NCBI GenBank assembly: GCA_965222605.1
Contig: OZ244960.1
Location: 3,488,001 to 3,552,000 of the forward strand
DNA length: 64,000 nucleotides
Direction of reading: 5' to 3'
Source of the DNA: Candidatus Latescibacterota bacterium
GTDB lineage: Bacteria; Latescibacterota; UBA2968
The translations under genes and the position numbers were made by a program. Of this stretch, positions 46,527 through 53,151 are shown in pieces. Numbering within the stretch: position 1 is the stretch's first letter; each line of letters starts with the position of its first letter. Below the pieces are notes generated by a model. The model saw nothing but the letters and a program-made list of their open reading frames with translations. It did not search any database and was not told where the DNA came from.

Positions 46527-48866
46527 ATGTCTTACCAGATGCCACCCGAAGAACTCGCCGCGATTGTTGATGCGCCTCTAACACCTTCGTTTAGCATTGA
46601 TCCCACAAAGACAATGTTGCTGTTGATGCACCGTCCGGGCACACCGTCTATTGAAGAGGTGTCGCGGTCCGAGTTGCGTCTGGCAGGATTGCGCCTGGAT
46701 CCAGATGTCAATGGGCAAAGTCGCGTGGGATTTTACAATGGGCTGACGCTCAAGTGGATTGCCAATGGTCGTGAAATACCTGTGACGGGTTTGCCGCAAG
46801 ACGCGAAAATTGGACGGGCTTATTGGGCGCCCGATGGTCGGCGGTTTGCTTTTTCGGTGACGGGTGATAATGGGATTGATCTGTGGGTGGGCAATGCGAA
46901 GACGGGTCGGGCGCATCCGGTTGGCGATGTGAAATTGAATCAGGTGTTTGGCGGGGCAATCGTCTGGCTGCCCGATAGTTCGGGGCTGTTGGTGCGTGCG
47001 GTATGTGATGGTCGAGGCAATCCGCCCGGGGTGCCCCGCGTGCCCAAAGGTCCGGTGATACAGGAAAATGTGGGGGAACGGGCAGCACCATCGCGCACGT
47101 ATCAAGATTTGTTAAAGAATGCACATGATGAGTTGCTATTTGAATATTATGCCACTTCGCAGGTTGCACTTGTGCGCCTGAATGGCGATGTGAGACCTGT
47201 GGGTTCTCCCGGGTTGATTGGTCGCGCTGATCCGTCGCCAGATGGTCGTTATGTGCTGGTGTTGACTATTCACCGACCGTTTTCGTATCTGGTGCCTTCG
47301 TATCGTTTTCCAACAAAAGTAGCGATCTGGGATTTGGATGGGCGCGAGGTGCGCGAACTTGCTGATTTGCCATTGGCCGAATCTGTGCCGATTGCTTATG
47401 ATGCCGTGCCCGAAGGTGCGCGGTCATTTGGATGGCGCGCAGACGCGCCTGTGACCGTAACGTGGGTTGTGGCACAGGATGGCGGCGATCCCGAGGTGGA
47501 TATGGCGGTGCGGGATATTGTGTATGCGCTCGACGCGCCTTATGAGGGTGATGGGCGCGCGCTCATGTCGCTGGCGATGCGCTATGGTGGGTGTTCGTGG
47601 GGGACGGGTGATCTCGCGTTGGTTTCAGAACGCTGGTGGAAAACGCGGCGCGTGCGTACGTGGCGCATTCGCCCGGATGATTCGGACTTTGAACCACAGG
47701 TATTGTTTGACCGGTCGTGGGAAGATCGCTACAGCGATCCGGGCGCGCCGGTGTTCACGCGGTTGCCCAATGGTCGGTCTGTGTTGCTGACCGATGCGTC
47801 GCAACGCCATCTGTTTTTTGCAGGCGATGGTGCGTCGCCCAAAGGTGATCGCCCATTTTTGGATCGCTATGATCTGGAGACGGGCAAAGCAGAACGTCTC
47901 ATGCATTCTCAGGTGCCATTTTACGAGCGGCCAACGGTGATGATCGATGCCAATACGGTGTTGATGAGCCGGGAGGGCGTTGAGGAACCGACCAATTATT
48001 ATTTGCGGGATTTGGAGCGCAATGACATGCGGCAGCTCACGCATTTTGTTCATCCCATGCCGCAATTGAGAGCGGTACAGAAGTCGTTGATTCAGTATCG
48101 GCGCGAAGATGGGGTGCAATTGAATGGGACGTTGTATTTGCCGCCCGGATATAAAAACGACGATAGTCCACTGCCAGTGCTAATGTGGGCTTATCCCCGC
48201 GAATTTAAGAGTGCAGATGCCGCGGGTCAGGTGAAGGATTCTCCCTTTCGCTTTGTGCGTATCAGTCCGCATGGTGCGTTGCCTTTTTTGGCGCGGGGTT
48301 ATGCTGTGCTGGATGGTCCGGCGATGCCGATTGTGGGCGAGGGAGATAGTGAGGCAAATGATACCTACATCGCGCAACTTGCCGATAGTGCAAGGGCCGC
48401 GGTTGATGAGTTGGTGCGTCTGGGTGTGGCCGATCCCAAAAAAGTGGCGGTGGGGGGACATTCCTACGGCGGTTTTATGACGGCGAATTTGCTGGCACAC
48501 ACAGATTTGTTTTGCTGTGGTATTGCGCGCAGTGGCGCGTATAACCGCACGTTGACGCCTTTTGGTTTTCAGGCAGAAGAGCGCACGCTCTGGCAGGCAG
48601 CAGATATTTATGCGGCGATGTCTCCGTTTAATCATGTGCCCAAAATTAACGCGCCTTTGCTACTTATTCACGGCGAGGCGGACAATAATTCGGGCACGTT
48701 TCCCATGCAGAGCGAGCGATTTTACAATGCGCTCAAAGGACACGGCGTCATCTGTCGATTGGTGATGTTGCCGCATGAGAGTCACGGATACCGGGCGCGC
48801 GAGTCGATTATGCACGTTCTGTGGGAGATGTCAGAGTGGTTGGATAGATACGCTAAAAAGGAATAA
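46527..48866 (+). CDS. S9 family serine peptidase (prolyl oligopeptidase/glutamyl endopeptidase-like)
   Basis: GGHSYGG nucleophile, HGEADNN, ESHGY. ATG 46527 has an AAGGAG RBS. Confidence 0.9.
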   Translation: MSYQMPPEELAAIVDAPLTPSFSIDPTKTMLLLMHRPGTPSIEEVSRSELRLAGLRLDPDVNGQSRVGFYNGLTLKWIANGREIPVTGLPQDAKIGRAYWAPDGRRFAFSVTGDNGIDLWVGNAKTGRAHPVGDVKLNQVFGGAIVWLPDSSGLLVRAVCDGRGNPPGVPRVPKGPVIQENVGERAAPSRTYQDLLKNAHDELLFEYYATSQVALVRLNGDVRPVGSPGLIGRADPSPDGRYVLVLTIHRPFSYLVPSYRFPTKVAIWDLDGREVRELADLPLAESVPIAYDAVPEGARSFGWRADAPVTVTWVVAQDGGDPEVDMAVRDIVYALDAPYEGDGRALMSLAMRYGGCSWGTGDLALVSERWWKTRRVRTWRIRPDDSDFEPQVLFDRSWEDRYSDPGAPVFTRLPNGRSVLLTDASQRHLFFAGDGASPKGDRPFLDRYDLETGKAERLMHSQVPFYERPTVMIDANTVLMSREGVEEPTNYYLRDLERNDMRQLTHFVHPMPQLRAVQKSLIQYRREDGVQLNGTLYLPPGYKNDDSPLPVLMWAYPREFKSADAAGQVKDSPFRFVRISPHGALPFLARGYAVLDGPAMPIVGEGDSEANDTYIAQLADSARAAVDELVRLGVADPKKVAVGGHSYGGFMTANLLAHTDLFCCGIARSGAYNRTLTPFGFQAEERTLWQAADIYAAMSPFNHVPKINAPLLLIHGEADNNSGTFPMQSERFYNALKGHGVICRLVMLPHESHGYRARESIMHVLWEMSEWLDRYAKKE

Positions 48867-48895
48867 AAATTCAAAAAAATGAATTTTTATTCTTG
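48858..48895. promoter_or_regulatory. Tandem ARG boxes overlapping the -35 (TTGACT) of the arg operon
   Basis: aaGGAATaaaaATTCAaa and aaTGAATttttATTCTtg, 2 bp apart, match WNTGAAT-W4-ATTCANW. Confidence 0.8.
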
Positions 48896-48993
48896 ACTTG
48901 TGTTTGTTTCCGGTATATTTTTTTCCTCATATCATCTTTGAATAGGAACCACAATGCAGGTAAAAGTACCTCAGAACATGGAGGGGGAAAATT

Positions 48994-49650
48994 ATGAGTG
49001 CGAAAAAAGAACGGCAGCAGAAAATTTTAGAACTGATTACTGAGGGATCTATCACACGTCAAGAAGAACTGAATGCTGCGTTGCAGGAAGTTGGAATTTC
49101 GACTACACAATCGACCCTATCAAAAGATATTAAGGAACTGGGTATTGCAAAAGCACCTGATGGTGAAGGGGGCTTCCGATATCAAATTCCAGGGATTCCA
49201 ATAGGTTCAGAACGGATGTCGTTACATGGTGATGACCTGTTGAGGCGCGAGTTGCAAGACTTTGTTATTGGTGTAGAAGCGGTGGCTCATACGCTGATTT
49301 TGAAGACTATTACTGGACATGCTCAGGGTGTTTGTGAAGCAATTGATCAAGCAGAATGGGCAGAAGTTGCTGGAACGCTCGCTGGAGAAAACACCATTTT
49401 TATTATTTGTCGCTCATCAGAAGCATGTCAGGATCTTGAAAAGAGTATTTGGTTACAAATGAAAACTTGGTCGACAAATCAATCAGTAAGCGGTGTTGGG
49501 ATAAATTCTGTAAGTAATGAAAACCCATCAGTAGCACGTAAAGAAGGTATTCTGGTCATTCGTTCACAAGCACCTCAACCTCTTGGGAATACGTTGAAAC
49601 AAAGTCGCGAAGCACGGTTGAAAGGGCTGGCGGAGAAATCCGGTTTATGA
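48994..49650 (+). CDS. argR: Arginine repressor with ~60-aa C-terminal extension resembling a VapB/AbrB antitoxin tail
   Basis: RQQKILELI..TQSTLSKDIKELG wHTH; GTLAGENTIF arginine-binding domain; extra tail NPSVARKEGILVIRS...REARLKGL. Confidence 0.85.
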   Translation: MSAKKERQQKILELITEGSITRQEELNAALQEVGISTTQSTLSKDIKELGIAKAPDGEGGFRYQIPGIPIGSERMSLHGDDLLRRELQDFVIGVEAVAHTLILKTITGHAQGVCEAIDQAEWAEVAGTLAGENTIFIICRSSEACQDLEKSIWLQMKTWSTNQSVSGVGINSVSNENPSVARKEGILVIRSQAPQPLGNTLKQSREARLKGLAEKSGL

Positions 49651-50081
49651 AAATTTTGTTGGATACATCTGTGCTTATCGCCGCGATGGTTGAAGCCCAC
49701 CCCAATCACGACCGAGCACTGATGTGGTTAAAACGCGCACGGCAAGACGATGTTTCTGCATATATTGCGGCTCATACACTTGCCGAGTTGTATGCTGTTT
49801 TAACGCGTTTGCCAGTACAACCACGCATTTCTTCGGCCATTGCACTGCAACTTATCCAGGAAAATGTCGTCTCTGTATTTGAAATAATTGCATCAGACGG
49901 CGATGAATACAAAACGCTTTTGGTGCATCTCGCGCAACAAGGCATCACAGGTGGTGCAACCTACGATGCTCTGATTGCACATACAGCTTACCGGATTCGG
50001 GTTGATCATTTGATAACTTTTAATGAACGAGATTTTAAGGCTGTTTACCCAGATATTTCAGATCAGATTTTAGTACCTTGA
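49647..50081 (+). CDS. vapC: PIN-domain VapC-type toxin
   Basis: MKILLDTSVL, LAELYAVLT, YDALIA, TFNERDF; ATGA overlap with argR. Confidence 0.9.
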   Translation: MKILLDTSVLIAAMVEAHPNHDRALMWLKRARQDDVSAYIAAHTLAELYAVLTRLPVQPRISSAIALQLIQENVVSVFEIIASDGDEYKTLLVHLAQQGITGGATYDALIAHTAYRIRVDHLITFNERDFKAVYPDISDQILVP

Positions 50082-50093
50082 AAGGGTTGTGCG

Positions 50094-51026
50094 GTGATTA
50101 AAATAGGTATTTACGGCGATACCGGGATGGTGGGGCAGGAACTCCAAAAGGTTTTGAAACACCACGATCGGGCAAATATCGCGTTTCGACAAAATTCAAG
50201 GCGTCGGGAAGGCAATTTGGCCGATTGCGATGTGGTGTTTTTGGCGACAAAAGATCCCGAGTCGATGACGTTTGCGCCCGAGGCACTGGCCGCAGGTGCG
50301 AGGGTTATCGATATGAGCGGTGCTTTTCGGTTGCCTAAAGAGGCGTTTGAAAAGGGTTATGGTCTGGCGCATACGGCGTCTGAGTTGCTCAAAGAAGCGG
50401 TTTATGGCATGCCCGCTTTGTTTGCCAAACATATTGCCAAAGCGCGTTTGGTGGGCAATCCGGGTTGTTATCCCACGAGTGTTATTTTGTCTCTGTATCC
50501 CCTCAAATCACTCGTGCAGGGGGAAGCGACGATTGTGGCGACTTCGGGCAATTCGGGTGCGCGAGCCGAGGTGGAGGATGTGTCAAATGAGATTGCGTAT
50601 AGCTATGGCAAGCGACACAAACATGTGCCCGAGATGGTGTTGTATTCGGGTTTTGAAGTGAATTTTACGCCTATTGTGCTGCGGTCGGTATTTGCGGGTA
50701 TCAATGCAAATATTCGAATAGAACTGGTTGATGAGTTGAAAGCGCTGGCGAATGAAGATGCCGCAGCGCAGTTGCGCGAGACCATTGCAAGTGCTTATGG
50801 CTCGGACGATCTGGTGCAGGTGGTCGAAGATTCCGACGCGCATTGGTGGGGTACGCGCGATGTGGTGGATACGCATAAACTGATTATCAAGTTGGGCGTT
50901 GATGACGGCTTTGCTTATATCAATGCCCTGGAAGACAATTTGCAAAAAGGCGCGGCTACTCAGGCTGTGGAAAATATGAATTTGATGCAGGCTCTGCCGC
51001 GGCTTTTTGGGATTACCAAAACGTGA
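50094..51026 (+). CDS. argC: N-acetyl-gamma-glutamyl-phosphate reductase
   Basis: GDTGMVG, IDMSGAFR, GNPGCYPT, DNLQKGAATQAVENMN. Confidence 0.9.
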   Translation: MIKIGIYGDTGMVGQELQKVLKHHDRANIAFRQNSRRREGNLADCDVVFLATKDPESMTFAPEALAAGARVIDMSGAFRLPKEAFEKGYGLAHTASELLKEAVYGMPALFAKHIAKARLVGNPGCYPTSVILSLYPLKSLVQGEATIVATSGNSGARAEVEDVSNEIAYSYGKRHKHVPEMVLYSGFEVNFTPIVLRSVFAGINANIRIELVDELKALANEDAAAQLRETIASAYGSDDLVQVVEDSDAHWWGTRDVVDTHKLIIKLGVDDGFAYINALEDNLQKGAATQAVENMNLMQALPRLFGITKT

Positions 51027-51928
51027 TGGAGAAAACCTTGGATCACAATATAGTTCAAAAGGCTGAGATTTTGATTGAGGCATTTCCGTATATTCGCGCA
51101 TTTCGCAACAAAATTATTGTGGTGAAATACGGCGGTAGCACACAGCCCGAAGAGGGCGGTTCCCCTACTATAATGGCCGATCTGGTGTTTATGGAGACCG
51201 TGGGTATGCGTCCTGTGGTTGTACACGGCGGGGGGAAGGATATTAACAGGCGTTTGGAAGCGTCGGGTATTGAATCGGAATGGGTCAATGGATTGCGGGT
51301 GACCGATAAGGCGTCGATGCAGGTAGTGGAAGATACGTTGTTTGGCGAGGTGAACAGGCGCATTGTCGATGGTCTGGAGATACTCGATGGACGCGCGCGC
51401 GGTATGTCGGCCAAAGACGCTGGCGTGATGTATGTGACGCGGCATTTTGCGACAGTAGAGAAGGAAGGCGGGAAGACCAGAGAGATCGATATCGGCTATG
51501 TTGGCGATGTCGCCCGAATTGATCCCGAACCCATCCGTTTGGCCTGTGAAGAAGGCATGATTCCCGTTATTTCGCCTGTTGGATTGGGGCCAGAGGGCGA
51601 GAGTTATAATGTGAATGCCGATACAGCGGCGGGTGAGATTGCGAGGGCACTGCAAGCGGAGAAGCTGGTGTTTTTAACGGATGTGAATGGCATTCGACGG
51701 TTTCCGGATGATCCGGATTCGCAGATTTCAACACTACATGTCAATGACGTGGAGATGCTGATTGAGAGAGGTATTGCCAGCGGGGGGATGATTCCCAAGT
51801 TGCGCGCGTGTGAACGTTCTGTGAAGGGCGGTGTTCACAAGACGCATATTATTGATGGCAGTGTTCCGCACGCGCTTTTGCTGGAGATTTTTACCCGCGA
51901 GGGTATTGGAACGCAAATTGTGCAGTAG
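51023..51928 (+). CDS. argB: Acetylglutamate kinase
   Basis: VVKYGG, VHGGG, GLRVTD, NVNADT, GGMIPK. Confidence 0.95.
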   Translation: MMEKTLDHNIVQKAEILIEAFPYIRAFRNKIIVVKYGGSTQPEEGGSPTIMADLVFMETVGMRPVVVHGGGKDINRRLEASGIESEWVNGLRVTDKASMQVVEDTLFGEVNRRIVDGLEILDGRARGMSAKDAGVMYVTRHFATVEKEGGKTREIDIGYVGDVARIDPEPIRLACEEGMIPVISPVGLGPEGESYNVNADTAAGEIARALQAEKLVFLTDVNGIRRFPDDPDSQISTLHVNDVEMLIERGIASGGMIPKLRACERSVKGGVHKTHIIDGSVPHALLLEIFTREGIGTQIVQ

Positions 51929-51951: not shown

Positions 51952-53151
51952 ATGACGACTCGAGAAATTATTGATTTAGAACAGAAGTATATTCTGCAAA
52001 CCTATGGACGGCCCGAGTTTGTGCTGGAAAAGGGCGATGGGGTCCATATTGTGGATACGGACGGCAAGCATTATCTCGATTTTGTGAGTGGCTTGTCTGT
52101 CAATGCTCTGGGATATAATAATTCGATGATTCAAGAGGCTGCCAACGCGCAGTTGGGTAAGTTGATCCATGTTTCAAATTTGTATCACACGATTCCGGCG
52201 CCTCAACTGGCACAGTTGTTGTGCGAGCATTCGTTTGCAGATCGCGTGTTTTTCTGCAATAGCGGAACAGAGTCTATCGAGGCTGCGCTGAAGTTTGCGC
52301 GCAAGTGGGGGTACAAGAATTTTGAAGATGCGCCCAAGAATAAAATTATTGCGATGAATAATTCTTTTCACGGGCGAACGTATGGCGGGATTTCTGCGAC
52401 GGGTCAACCCAGATATCATCAGGGATTTGGGCCGATGTTGCCGGGTATTGAATTTGCCGATTTGAACGATTTGGAGTCGGTGGAGAAGCTGGCAGATGGC
52501 CAGACGGTGGCTGTTTTGCTGGAGCCGCTACAGGCAGAAGGGGGTATTCACTCGTCAGATCCGGAATTTTTGGAAGGTGTGCGCGCCCTGTGCGATGAGA
52601 TGAAGATGTTGTTGATTTTCGACGAGATTCAGTGTGGTTTGGGGCGGGCTGGTTCGCTGTTTTGCTACGAGCAGTACGGTGTGGCGCCAGATATTATGAC
52701 GCTTGCCAAACCCTTAGCTGGCGGGTTGCCGATTGGGGCGACACTTGTGACGCAGGATGTGGCCGATGCGGTGGAGCCGGGGGATCATGCCGCGACGTTT
52801 GGGGCGCATCCCGTGTCTTGTGCGGTGGCGATTGAGGTATTTAAGACGATATCTGATCCCGCATTTATTGCGGGTATAGAAGAGAAGAGTGCGTATTTGT
52901 TTGGGAAGCTGAATGCTTTGAAAGACAAACACGCCGGGAAGGTGACGGAAATTCGCGGCAGTGGGTTGATCGCGGGCGCGGTGCTGAAAGAGATATCGGC
53001 GGCGGATGCGATGAATGCGATTCGGGAAAATAATGATATTTTAGTATGTGTCGCAGGGCCAGATGTGGTGCGCTTTTTGCCACCACTGGTGATTGAGAAA
53101 GAACATATTGATGCGGCTGTGAATGCGCTGGATGAGTTTTTGTCCGATTAG
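51952..53151 (+). CDS. argD: Acetylornithine aminotransferase
   Basis: FCNSGTE, SFHGRT, FDEIQCGLGR, AKPLAGGLPIG. Confidence 0.95.
   Translation: MTTREIIDLEQKYILQTYGRPEFVLEKGDGVHIVDTDGKHYLDFVSGLSVNALGYNNSMIQEAANAQLGKLIHVSNLYHTIPAPQLAQLLCEHSFADRVFFCNSGTESIEAALKFARKWGYKNFEDAPKNKIIAMNNSFHGRTYGGISATGQPRYHQGFGPMLPGIEFADLNDLESVEKLADGQTVAVLLEPLQAEGGIHSSDPEFLEGVRALCDEMKMLLIFDEIQCGLGRAGSLFCYEQYGVAPDIMTLAKPLAGGLPIGATLVTQDVADAVEPGDHAATFGAHPVSCAVAIEVFKTISDPAFIAGIEEKSAYLFGKLNALKDKHAGKVTEIRGSGLIAGAVLKEISAADAMNAIRENNDILVCVAGPDVVRFLPPLVIEKEHIDAAVNALDEFLSD

Follow-up and report, generated by a model that had tools for sequence, protein, structure and literature searches.

Gene layout of the locus

The window is the whole stretch of DNA analysed, 64 kb long. 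The features at the locus, with their positions in the window, are the following:

48860..48873, no strand: ARG box 1 (GGAATAAAAATTCA), one mismatch, sharing bases with the stop codon that ends the S9 peptidase gene upstream
48880..48893, no strand: ARG box 2 (TGAATTTTTATTCT), one mismatch, 20 bp past box 1 and abutting the -35 hexamer
48893..48921, + strand: promoter-like TTGACT-17-TATTTT, a consensus match only
about 48900..50095, + strand: divergent AT-rich block comprising promoter spacer, 5′ UTR, argR, tail and vapC, delimited by identity to L020, GC and GC3
48994..49650, + strand: ORF of the argR-tail fusion, 218 aa, complete ArgR plus linker plus tail (ORF list)
48994..49449, + strand: ArgR core, codons 1-152, winged-helix DNA-binding and oligomerisation/effector domains (PF01316, PF02863)
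49450..49518, + strand: end of ArgR proper and Ser/Asn/Thr-rich linker, codons 153-175, relaxed constraint
49519..49650, + strand: VapB-type toxin-binding tail, codons 176-218 and stop (ENPSVARKEGILVIRSQAPQPLGNTLKQSREARLKGLAEKSGL), identified by homology searches with the tail; binding predicted
49647..50081, + strand: vapC, 144 aa, PIN domain (PF01850), putative toxin gene
50094..51026, + strand: argC, N-acetyl-gamma-glutamyl-phosphate reductase family, starting 12 nt past vapC (ORF list, Pfam)
51023..51928, + strand: argB, amino-acid kinase family (ORF list, Pfam)
51952..53151, + strand: argD, class-III aminotransferase (ORF list, Pfam)

The ORF list and Pfam confirmed the layout that the sequence-only reading had proposed, in which ArgR runs in frame through a linker into the tail, overlaps an intact PIN gene by ATGA and is followed by argC-argB-argD. 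The ATGA at 49647-49650 holds both the stop codon of the fusion and the start codon of vapC, and a GGAG lies 8-9 nt upstream of the latter; the overlap and the GGAG are retained in all three carriers of the intact cassette. The antitoxin-bearing gene is thus located directly upstream of vapC, on the same strand and overlapping it, as is typical of toxin-antitoxin (TA) pairs, and the module is part of a biosynthetic operon instead of having a separate promoter. The genome has a single copy of argR.

For scoring of operators we used TGAATWWWWATTCA, which we take to be the ARG-box core. With at most one mismatch, boxes 1 and 2 were its only matches across the 64-kb window, and with at most two mismatches there were five matches against 3.24 expected from shuffled sequences. 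Box 1 was found in the same place at no more than one mismatch in 20 of 20 genus rows, with the cassette present or absent, and box 2 in 19 of 20 (L026 has two mismatches). The tandem ARG boxes noticed ahead of the operon are real; they fit this core and are conserved in the genus. They abut TTGACT-17-TATTTT, the sole + strand promoter-like site before 51027, and are predicted to be operators. Past this promoter-like site, no further promoter-like or terminator-like site was found on the + strand before argB. One RNA-library run (X18), which covers the stretch in part, has contigs over a 5′ portion of argR and a 3′ portion of the PIN gene. They are only a weak hint that the cassette is transcribed, and the gaps in this run do not indicate absence.

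The fusion is present in relatives and in independent contigs

An overlooked stop codon, a frameshift or a chimera made in assembly could in principle have joined ArgR and tail. The genome is a metagenome-assembled single contig. We found no evidence supporting such an artefact. The same in-frame fusion is encoded in the genomes of two further species (G011 and G025, 85-87 % identity), an in-frame ORF through the tail is present also in G030, and four metagenome proteins (P0001-P0003 and P0005) carry the fusion. Moreover, individual contigs of three runs (X1, X3 and X4, one of which may be the source sample), each belonging to a different study, extend without gaps from 48850/48870 to 50133-50138, through argR, the tail and the PIN gene into the beginning of argC. 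In both the relatives and the contigs the reading frame of the fusion is kept and free of indels, and an artefact is effectively refuted.

The ArgR part is a complete repressor

In the Pfam search, Arg_repressor (PF01316, cut-off 27 bits) was recovered at residues 4-66 with E 1.7e-18 and 66.6 bits, and Arg_repressor_C (PF02863, cut-off 25 bits) at residues 87-152 with E 9.7e-22 and 77 bits. The NCBIfam equivalog TIGR01529 (argR_whole) was narrowly missed with 127.7 bits against a cut-off of 130.45, and the remaining ArgR equivalogs were farther under their cut-offs. The full-length core aligns with the solved AhrC (1F9N) and ArgR (1B4A) over residues 4-148, and the core has a dN/dS of 0.03-0.15. 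ArgR is a hexamer. The Asp-Asp pair of its effector motif G-x-x-G-D-D-T has a role in arginine binding. The solved AhrC and ArgR read GDDT at this place and the fusion reads GENT, with E132 and N133 invariant in 13 of 13 relatives, tailed or tail-less, so that effector binding may differ from the models. To summarise the comparison with AhrC/ArgR, the alignable core, the ARG boxes at its own promoter and the linkage to argCBD are shared, whereas the 66-residue C-terminal extension, E132-N133 and the sub-cut-off TIGR01529 score set the fusion apart.

The tail is homologous to antitoxin C-termini

Pfam gave no match on residues 153-218, NCBIfam returned nothing meaningful for the tail alone, and no AbrB, RHH, PHD or HTH antitoxin domain, PF04014 included, was detected in the fusion by Pfam at E<=0.1. 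A word-based search with residues 160-218 produced no candidate among shorter proteins, and one with the tail half of the L004 antitoxin found only itself; word seeding failed because the tails are too divergent, and a profile HMM search was needed. When the profiles were compared by hhalign, four tails matched five stand-alone antitoxins with 95.7 % probability (E 1e-8) over 41 columns up to the C-terminus. Residues 183-218 of the fusion align end to end with residues 57-92 of the L004 antitoxin (39 % identity, pairwise E 2e-5); both proteins end in GL and both genes overlap the next by ATGA. The proposed resemblance of the tail to the C-terminus of VapB-type antitoxins is therefore borne out. 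A MAFFT alignment placed the linker stretch SVSGVGINSVSN under the AbrB loop of L004, and we did not accept it as evidence of an AbrB remnant.

The tail profile (43 positions) was searched against 1.84 billion representatives at E<=0.001. It matched 132 proteins. Nearly all end in the module and measure about 76-100 aa, although some were very short (38-68 aa). P0002, from the fusion clade, was the sole match with ArgR domains, and both of them were present. The other 131 comprised 52 AbrB-type proteins (MazE_antitoxin and/or MraZ), 12 proteins of other families, including HTH_17, RHH and RelB-like, 67 without any domain and none with ArgR. The organism's own genome contains one tail of this type (E 1.5e-20), the next-best match having an E of 1.35. 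R205 and R208 are invariant in the alignment of the tail module.

Codon 163 or so is the position at which cassette-free ArgRs stop, and secondary stops of L016 and L017 are found there as well. The dN/dS of the linker is 0.30-0.97, so its constraint is relaxed. For the tail, we obtained 0.28-0.35 against G030 and 0.45-0.68 among the three carriers, the latter from 3-12 substitutions.

The PIN protein and its linkage to the tail module

The vapC product contains a PIN domain (PF01850, E 3.1e-16) with invariant D6, E47, D107 and N126. Position 126 is a fourth acidic residue in many PINs, in contrast to the asparagine seen here. The protein stays under the VapC cut-offs of NCBIfam (48.5 bits for TIGR00028, which requires 73.6), and its dN/dS of 0.08-0.13 indicates purifying selection. 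A sequence search of the PDB with the PIN profile gave no solved PIN at E<=0.01, the best being the VapC 3ZVK (E 0.16), so no solved template can be named for the tail-toxin interface. The top PDB match, the cohesin loader 6YUF (E 0.0019), was taken as chance. There are 27 PIN matches in the genome.

The nearest PIN relative outside the genus is found in L004 (58 % identity), downstream of an antitoxin of 92 aa with an AbrB/MazE domain at residues 8-46. The tail module was present directly upstream of the PIN gene in all five genome loci with PIN identity of 35-58 % and in 16 of the 17 metagenome loci where the PIN reached 35 % identity or more and its N-terminus was covered by the contig (five of these 16 were identical or close to training rows). 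It was present in none of the four loci with PIN identity of 25-29 %. The partner antitoxins of L004, L006 and L008 contain PF04014. The homology searches with the tail thus led to antitoxin C-termini encoded upstream of related PIN genes, as the sequence-only reading had anticipated.

The cassette lies in a probably foreign block and is decaying in sister species

The argR-tail-vapC architecture occurs in a few uncultured Latescibacterota. Comparison shows that the ancestral arrangement is argR followed directly by argC. Identity to L020 in 30-nt steps falls after about 48890 and returns from about 50110; the block between is divergent from the nearest cassette-free relative, although both its flanks are 83-100 % identical to the same relative. 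The block has a GC content of 0.40-0.46 against 0.50-0.63 in the flanks. GC3 is 0.31 in argR and 0.37 in the PIN gene against 0.54 in argC, and the range given by the evidence for a foreign block is 0.31-0.34 against 0.53-0.58. Trees of argR unite the three carriers (99/98 and 98/98), and monophyly of the carriers is rejected by argC (AU p 1.2e-4) and by the upstream peptidase gene (AU p 1.9e-4). The block seems to be an allele of foreign origin which, in three species, took the place of the resident argR through recombination.

Six genomes could be compared for the state of the cassette: both parts are intact in three, the tail alone is left in one, neither in two, and the toxin alone in none. 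The genome with only the tail is G030, which indicates that the tail can persist for some time without its partner. In the three sister species that have lost the toxin or both parts the cassette is decaying, and the module is therefore dispensable. This qualifies the suggestion that argR could be addictive, since these losses show that a genome can rid itself of the module if the toxin is the first part to go.

Discussion

We interpret the locus as a type II VapBC module in which a 43-residue VapB toxin-binding module is welded to the only full-length ArgR of the genome, and we assign this reading a probability of about 0.7. It is based on the architecture, the tail homology, the linkage between module and PIN, the conservation, the pattern of selection, the operon layout and the discordant phylogeny. 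That ArgR stands in place of the antitoxin's DNA-binding domain is supported by the tail homology and by the frame kept in relatives and contigs. It seems that a housekeeping regulator also serves as antidote in a TA pair.

According to this interpretation, a flexible linker of ~13-23 residues would join the C-terminus of ArgR to the tail, making an antitoxin without a small DNA-binding domain of its own. The ArgR part would oligomerise and bind the tandem ARG boxes at the single promoter, so the fusion, VapC and argCBD would come from one arginine-repressible transcript. The ATGA overlap would couple translation of vapC to that of the fusion. Each tail would bind and neutralise one toxic VapC, with R205 and R208 as candidates for plugging the acidic active site formed by D6, E47 and D107, and VapC would be freed if degradation of a labile tail or linker outpaced its replacement.

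Several observations were counted against the VapBC interpretation: the tail dN/dS among the closest carriers (only 0.45-0.68), the toxin-less tail of G030, the PIN score under the VapC cut-offs, the lack of a significant solved PIN relative by sequence, N126, E132-N133, the decay in three of six cassette lineages, and M157 as a possible start of a free antitoxin. Some of them would fit a vapBC pair that was inserted between argR and argC and then shed its DNA-binding domain, leaving a relic tail that is read through by accident and neutralises nothing, next to a domesticated PIN that is non-toxic or otherwise checked. The tail dN/dS, the linker values of up to 0.97, the tail kept in G030 and the sub-cut-off PIN agree with this scenario, and with 27 PIN matches in the genome, cross-talk is conceivable. 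However, the genome has no other tail of the module family, the module and this PIN subfamily occur together at all five genome loci and at 16 of the 17 metagenome loci, and none of the six genomes combines an intact PIN with a broken tail. The PIN also keeps D6, E47 and D107 under a dN/dS of 0.08-0.13, and the ATGA overlap and GGAG are kept in all three carriers. We therefore regard a relic as improbable.

The very short module matches (38-68 aa) could also mean that the antitoxin works as a free peptide of 62 aa, started internally at M157 (ATG at 49462), the ArgR fusion being incidental read-through. An ATG at codon 157 is indeed present in the window and in L013, L014 and L015. Yet a clear Shine-Dalgarno sequence is missing at the customary spacing from it (GAAAAGAG is ~13 nt upstream), in contrast to argR and vapC, whose starts are preceded by GGAG at about 8 nt. 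P0006, with its tail intact, has L at position 157, argR lacks an internal + strand promoter-like site, and the frame of the linker is open in four species and several metagenome proteins. We give the free peptide little credence, about one chance in ten.

Antitoxins swap small DNA-binding domains, and the closest known counterpart of our fusion is the pair of AbrB/MazE-type VapB and PIN VapC at L004:2726-3435. It has a PIN of the same subfamily (58 % identity) and likewise an antitoxin gene directly upstream with an ATGA overlap and a homologous module of ~41 residues ending the protein, but a 48-residue swapped-hairpin domain (PF04014) there takes the place of the complete 152-residue ArgR here. 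The same tail is also carried by P0163 (HTH_17), L007/L062 (RHH-like) and P0213/P0229 (RelB-like), so the toxin-binding module is naturally shuffled between DNA-binding domains. These are, however, small dedicated antitoxins of 86-118 aa, and none is a housekeeping metabolic regulator.

A precedent for the recruitment of a transcription-factor family as partner of PIN toxins is given by the truncated MerR antitoxins described by Makarova, Wolf and Koonin 2009 (PMC2701414). That MerR is a truncated protein devoted to its TA pair, whereas the ArgR studied here is full length, the sole copy and within its own regulon; the main text of that paper has no occurrence of ArgR or arginine repressor. 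The winged helix of AbiEi, the antitoxin of the type IV system AbiE, is said to resemble ArgR and BirA in the account of PMC3985639. The likeness is by fold only, AbiEi being not an ArgR, having no arginine regulon and facing another toxin. Full-text literature searches, the results of which were surveyed superficially, gave no description of an ArgR-antitoxin fusion.

More tentatively, the fusion might be a selfish, addictive allele of a housekeeping regulator that displaces the resident argR by recombination, a doubtful proposal that we put at well below even odds. The antidote would be welded to the sole ArgR with the poison immediately downstream, and homologous recombination between the conserved ARG-box/promoter region and argC would have replaced the native gene at least twice among the species of one genus. 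Loss of the block would leave a stable VapC without its antidote, so that an ordinary allele could not easily return. If this is true, synthesis of toxin and antidote would be repressed by ArgR with its effector, and release of VapC would go with arginine excess, not starvation, which reverses the common view that starvation leads to dormancy.

In the VapBC interpretation, what has been swapped in is an entire metabolic repressor, encoded once in the genome and still within its own regulon. The locus may then be a natural case of a TA pair that reads a metabolite through a well-understood sensor, and the contested question of whether nutrient status is linked to TA activation would become directly testable. 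It also suggests a route by which a TA module may make an allele of an essential-pathway regulator hard to displace. In the comparative data the block looks to be moving between species and replacing the native allele. The locus also offers decay caught in stages, from the intact pair through the tail alone to neither part, and both this series and the lack of a toxin-only genome are as an active pair predicts.

Gene layout and domains

The sequence-only reading had placed an ArgR that runs in frame into a tail, overlaps an intact PIN gene by ATGA and is followed by argC-argB-argD. ORF calls and Pfam searches agree with this layout.

48994-49650, + strand: argR-tail fusion gene (ORF, 218 aa)
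49647-50081, + strand: PIN/vapC gene (ORF, 144 aa; PF01850, E 3.1e-16)
Fusion residues 4-66: Arg_repressor (Pfam)
Fusion residues 87-152: Arg_repressor_C (Pfam)

No Pfam match was obtained for fusion residues 153-218. The fusion stop overlaps the PIN start in the ATGA common to both ORFs, a GGAG lies 8-9 nt upstream of the PIN ATG, and argC, argB and argD follow in this order with successive gaps of 12, -4 and 23 nt. The ArgR part scores slightly below the TIGR01529 cut-off and is alignable end to end with the solved AhrC (1F9N) and ArgR (1B4A), whose C-termini fall approximately where the extension of the fusion starts. The genome, a Latescibacterota MAG in one 6.34-Mb contig, contains a single argR match, even at E<=10.

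An Asp pair of ArgR is involved in arginine binding. Codons 132-133 (window 49387-49392) encode E-N (GTLAGENT) instead of the D-D (GDDT) of the solved AhrC and ArgR, and E132-N133 is invariant in all 13 aligned Latescibacterota-type ArgRs, tail-bearing or tail-less. Judging from these residues, the effector, or its mode of binding, may be different in this lineage.

The tail as a VapB-type module

The closest PIN relatives outside the genus come from other phyla (loci L004, L006, L005, L008 and L007, with 58, 46, 42, 38 and 37 % identity), and in each of them an ORF of 90-97 aa ends at the PIN start. Three of these upstream ORFs (L004, L006 and L008) carry an N-terminal AbrB/MazE domain, and that of L007 has weak RHH-type matches. 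In L006, from a KSB1 MAG, the PIN gene (403-839) is split in two overlapping ORFs (403-558 and 480-839), likely by a frameshift or a sequencing error.

Fusion residues 183-218 align without gaps to residues 57-92 of the L004 antitoxin (39 % identity, pairwise E 2e-5), and both proteins end in GL. Using hhalign, four fusion tails matched five stand-alone antitoxins over 41 columns (probability 95.7 %, E 1e-8), up to the final residue of the antitoxins. We also scored A5, a 43-position profile of the tail module, against 1.84 billion representatives (cut-off E<=0.001) and recovered 132 proteins, the best of which, P0002, represents the fusion clade. Nearly all remaining matches are about 76-100 aa long with the module at the C-terminus. 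All three comparisons bear out the resemblance, suggested in the sequence-only reading, of the tail to the C-termini of VapB antitoxins encoded upstream of PIN genes.

N-terminal domains in Pfam scans of the 131 A5 matches other than P0002
AbrB-type (MazE_antitoxin and/or MraZ): 52
Other families (HTH_17, FitA-like RHH, RelB-like, AF2212-like and others; including a RhoGAP repeat protein, an evident false match): 12
No domain matched: 67
ArgR domains: 0

The 162-aa antitoxins of loci L050 and L051 (P0128-like) share the tail module and have about 75 extra residues before the AbrB domain, a region for which no Pfam match was found.

A metagenome scan with the PIN protein gave 28 relatives, all at <=59 % identity; nine loci with the PIN N-terminus off the contig or with a partial match were left out of the upstream check. 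At PIN identities of at least 35 %, 16 of the 17 loci had an overlapping upstream ORF with a match to the profile (25-sequence search, E 9e-11 to 3e-20; 5 of the 16 are identical or close to profile-building rows); by the criterion used, L066 had none. At 25-29 % identity, such a match was found in none of four loci. Because of this linkage, the tail module and this PIN subfamily are predicted to be partners, the ArgR-borne tail being that partner.

In the organism's own genome the A5 family is represented by this tail only (E 1.5e-20; next match 1.35). At E<=1e-8 the PIN matched 4 of 168 genomes of the phylum, namely the three carriers of the intact cassette (tail plus PIN) and one genome at 30 % identity; beyond these the subfamily is absent from the phylum. 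The organism's own genome is otherwise rich in VapC-type toxins: 27 PIN matches pass the Pfam cut-off, and one of the 27 contains an internal TAG.

Distribution and decay of the cassette

The family survey returned an argR match in 30 of 31 genomes; in G029 (same genus, 98 % complete) the survey query gave none at E<=1e-5. Of the 29 other loci, 23 have an ArgR of about 155-162 aa with argC next to it (10 loci were read in all frames); the contig of L037 stops short of argC. About 160 unrelated extra bp separate argR from argC in L025 and L027 (genomes G012 and G020; gap of 208 vs 47 nt), and we saw no similarity to tail or PIN in them. Insertions at the argR-argC junction may be recurrent. Six genomes of the genus have the cassette or remnants of it.

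State of the cassette in six genomes
G000 (the organism's own), G011, G025: fusion and PIN intact, ATGA overlap
G030: fusion tail present, PIN deleted save the last 19 codons
G021: linker followed by a TGA stop, with tail fragments but PIN absent
G024: TAA in the position of the G021 stop, tail absent, 20 PIN codons remaining

P0006, a metagenome protein from a G024-type relative, is open through the stop position into an intact tail, and the stops of G021 and G024 are therefore secondary. In none of the six genomes is the PIN intact and the tail broken. This order of loss is what these sequences would be expected to show if the tail is the working antidote, six related genomes being few. A further fusion variant, the library protein P0004 (203 aa, on a 2825-nt contig), lacks 8 residues of the linker, has FRF in place of the last 12 tail residues, and may be another decaying copy.

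dN/dS, pairwise among the three carriers unless G030 is named
PIN: 0.08-0.13
ArgR core: 0.03-0.15
Linker: 0.30-0.97
Tail: 0.45-0.68 (3-12 substitutions only)
Tail vs G030: 0.28-0.35

The in-frame fusion is also present in other material: besides the intact copies in G011 and G025, contigs from three runs of three studies, one run possibly being the source sample, extend gap-free from 48850/48870 to 50133-50138, with 0, 10 and 26 substitutions. Run X4 also contains a cassette-free argR-argC contig at deeper coverage. In a metatranscriptome run, contigs lie on 48970-49277 and 49911-50084, a weak hint from an RNA library that the fusion/PIN stretch is transcribed.

Predicted operator and promoter

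ARG boxes were searched with the consensus core pattern TGAATWWWWATTCA.

48860-48873: ARG box 1 (<=1 mismatch to the core pattern)
48880-48893: ARG box 2 (<=1 mismatch to the core pattern)
48893-48921, + strand: promoter-like TTGACT-17-TATTTT, adjoining both boxes

The two boxes are the only matches with <=1 mismatch in the 64 kb; at <=2 mismatches, 5 matches were observed vs 3.24 expected. We found no further promoter-like site on the + strand upstream of 51027 and no terminator-like site upstream of 52643. The sequence-only reading had put tandem ARG boxes ahead of the operon, and two predicted boxes are indeed there: both, with the -35 hexamer, are kept in 20 of 20 genus rows (window to L031), cassette present or absent. 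Because of this conservation, the boxes are predicted to have served ancestrally as operator of an autoregulated argR-argCBD operon, inside which the toxin module came to lie.

The 5′ leader of the three carriers (window 48900-48993 and the upstream regions of L013 and L014) is 50-64 nt longer than in cassette-free relatives, and the boxes stand at -134/-114 or -120/-100 in carriers vs -70/-50 in these relatives. The G run before the argR start (48980-48987, ribosome-binding site) varies in length among strain variants, and base 48983 is missing in one contig of the RNA run. For the library protein P0001, the gene call adds 13 residues by starting at an upstream ATG, which in the window is not in frame.

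Origin of the block

The three carriers group together in trees of the argR N-domain (99/98) and C-domain (98/98), the latter also uniting all six bearers of the cassette or its remnants (97/93). In trees of argC and of the S9 peptidase gene upstream, cassette-free species are interspersed with the carriers, and monophyly of the carriers was rejected (AU p 1.2e-4 and 1.9e-4, respectively) for groups set by trait, not by the trees. GC3 in carriers is 0.31-0.34 for argR, 0.37 for PIN and 0.53-0.58 for their own argC, and 0.48-0.54 for cassette-free argR; GC in the window is 0.40-0.46 over 48750-50250 vs 0.50-0.63 outside. Compared with L020, its nearest cassette-free relative, the window shows 87-100 % identity as far as ~48890, 13-90 % across the block and 83-97 % from ~50110. 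These patterns are most simply read as recombination, more than once, that exchanged the resident argR for a foreign allele spanning promoter spacer to vapC. The conserved ARG-box/-35 region and argC would have been the recombination anchors. The donor would lie outside the genomes sampled.

Relation to known systems and proposed mechanism

Shuffling of the DNA-binding domains of antitoxins is well known. The locus shares with VapBC the PIN toxin, the overlapping upstream partner and the homologous toxin-binding module; unlike VapB, the ArgR fusion is not a small dedicated DNA-binding antitoxin. Comparative evidence thus makes ArgR-tail/PIN a predicted VapBC-like pair. The relevant parts of Makarova et al. 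2009 (PMC2701414) name RHH, AbrB, PHD, HTH and a truncated MerR as partners of PIN, with no mention of ArgR. AbiEi is reported to be like ArgR in fold only (PMC3985639). Full-text literature searches found no ArgR-antitoxin fusion.

From established knowledge of ArgR, the ArgR part would form a hexamer and, with effector, repress the single promoter. By analogy with type II systems, VapC synthesis would be coupled to that of the fusion through the ATGA overlap, and each tail would bind one VapC. In solved VapB and FitA complexes arginines reach into the PIN active site, and R205 and R208, invariant in the tail module, are candidates for this role. An internal start at M157 is a less likely alternative. 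In the coupled scheme, high effector would shut off synthesis of both fusion and VapC. If the fusion is more labile than VapC, VapC would then be freed under arginine excess, not starvation.
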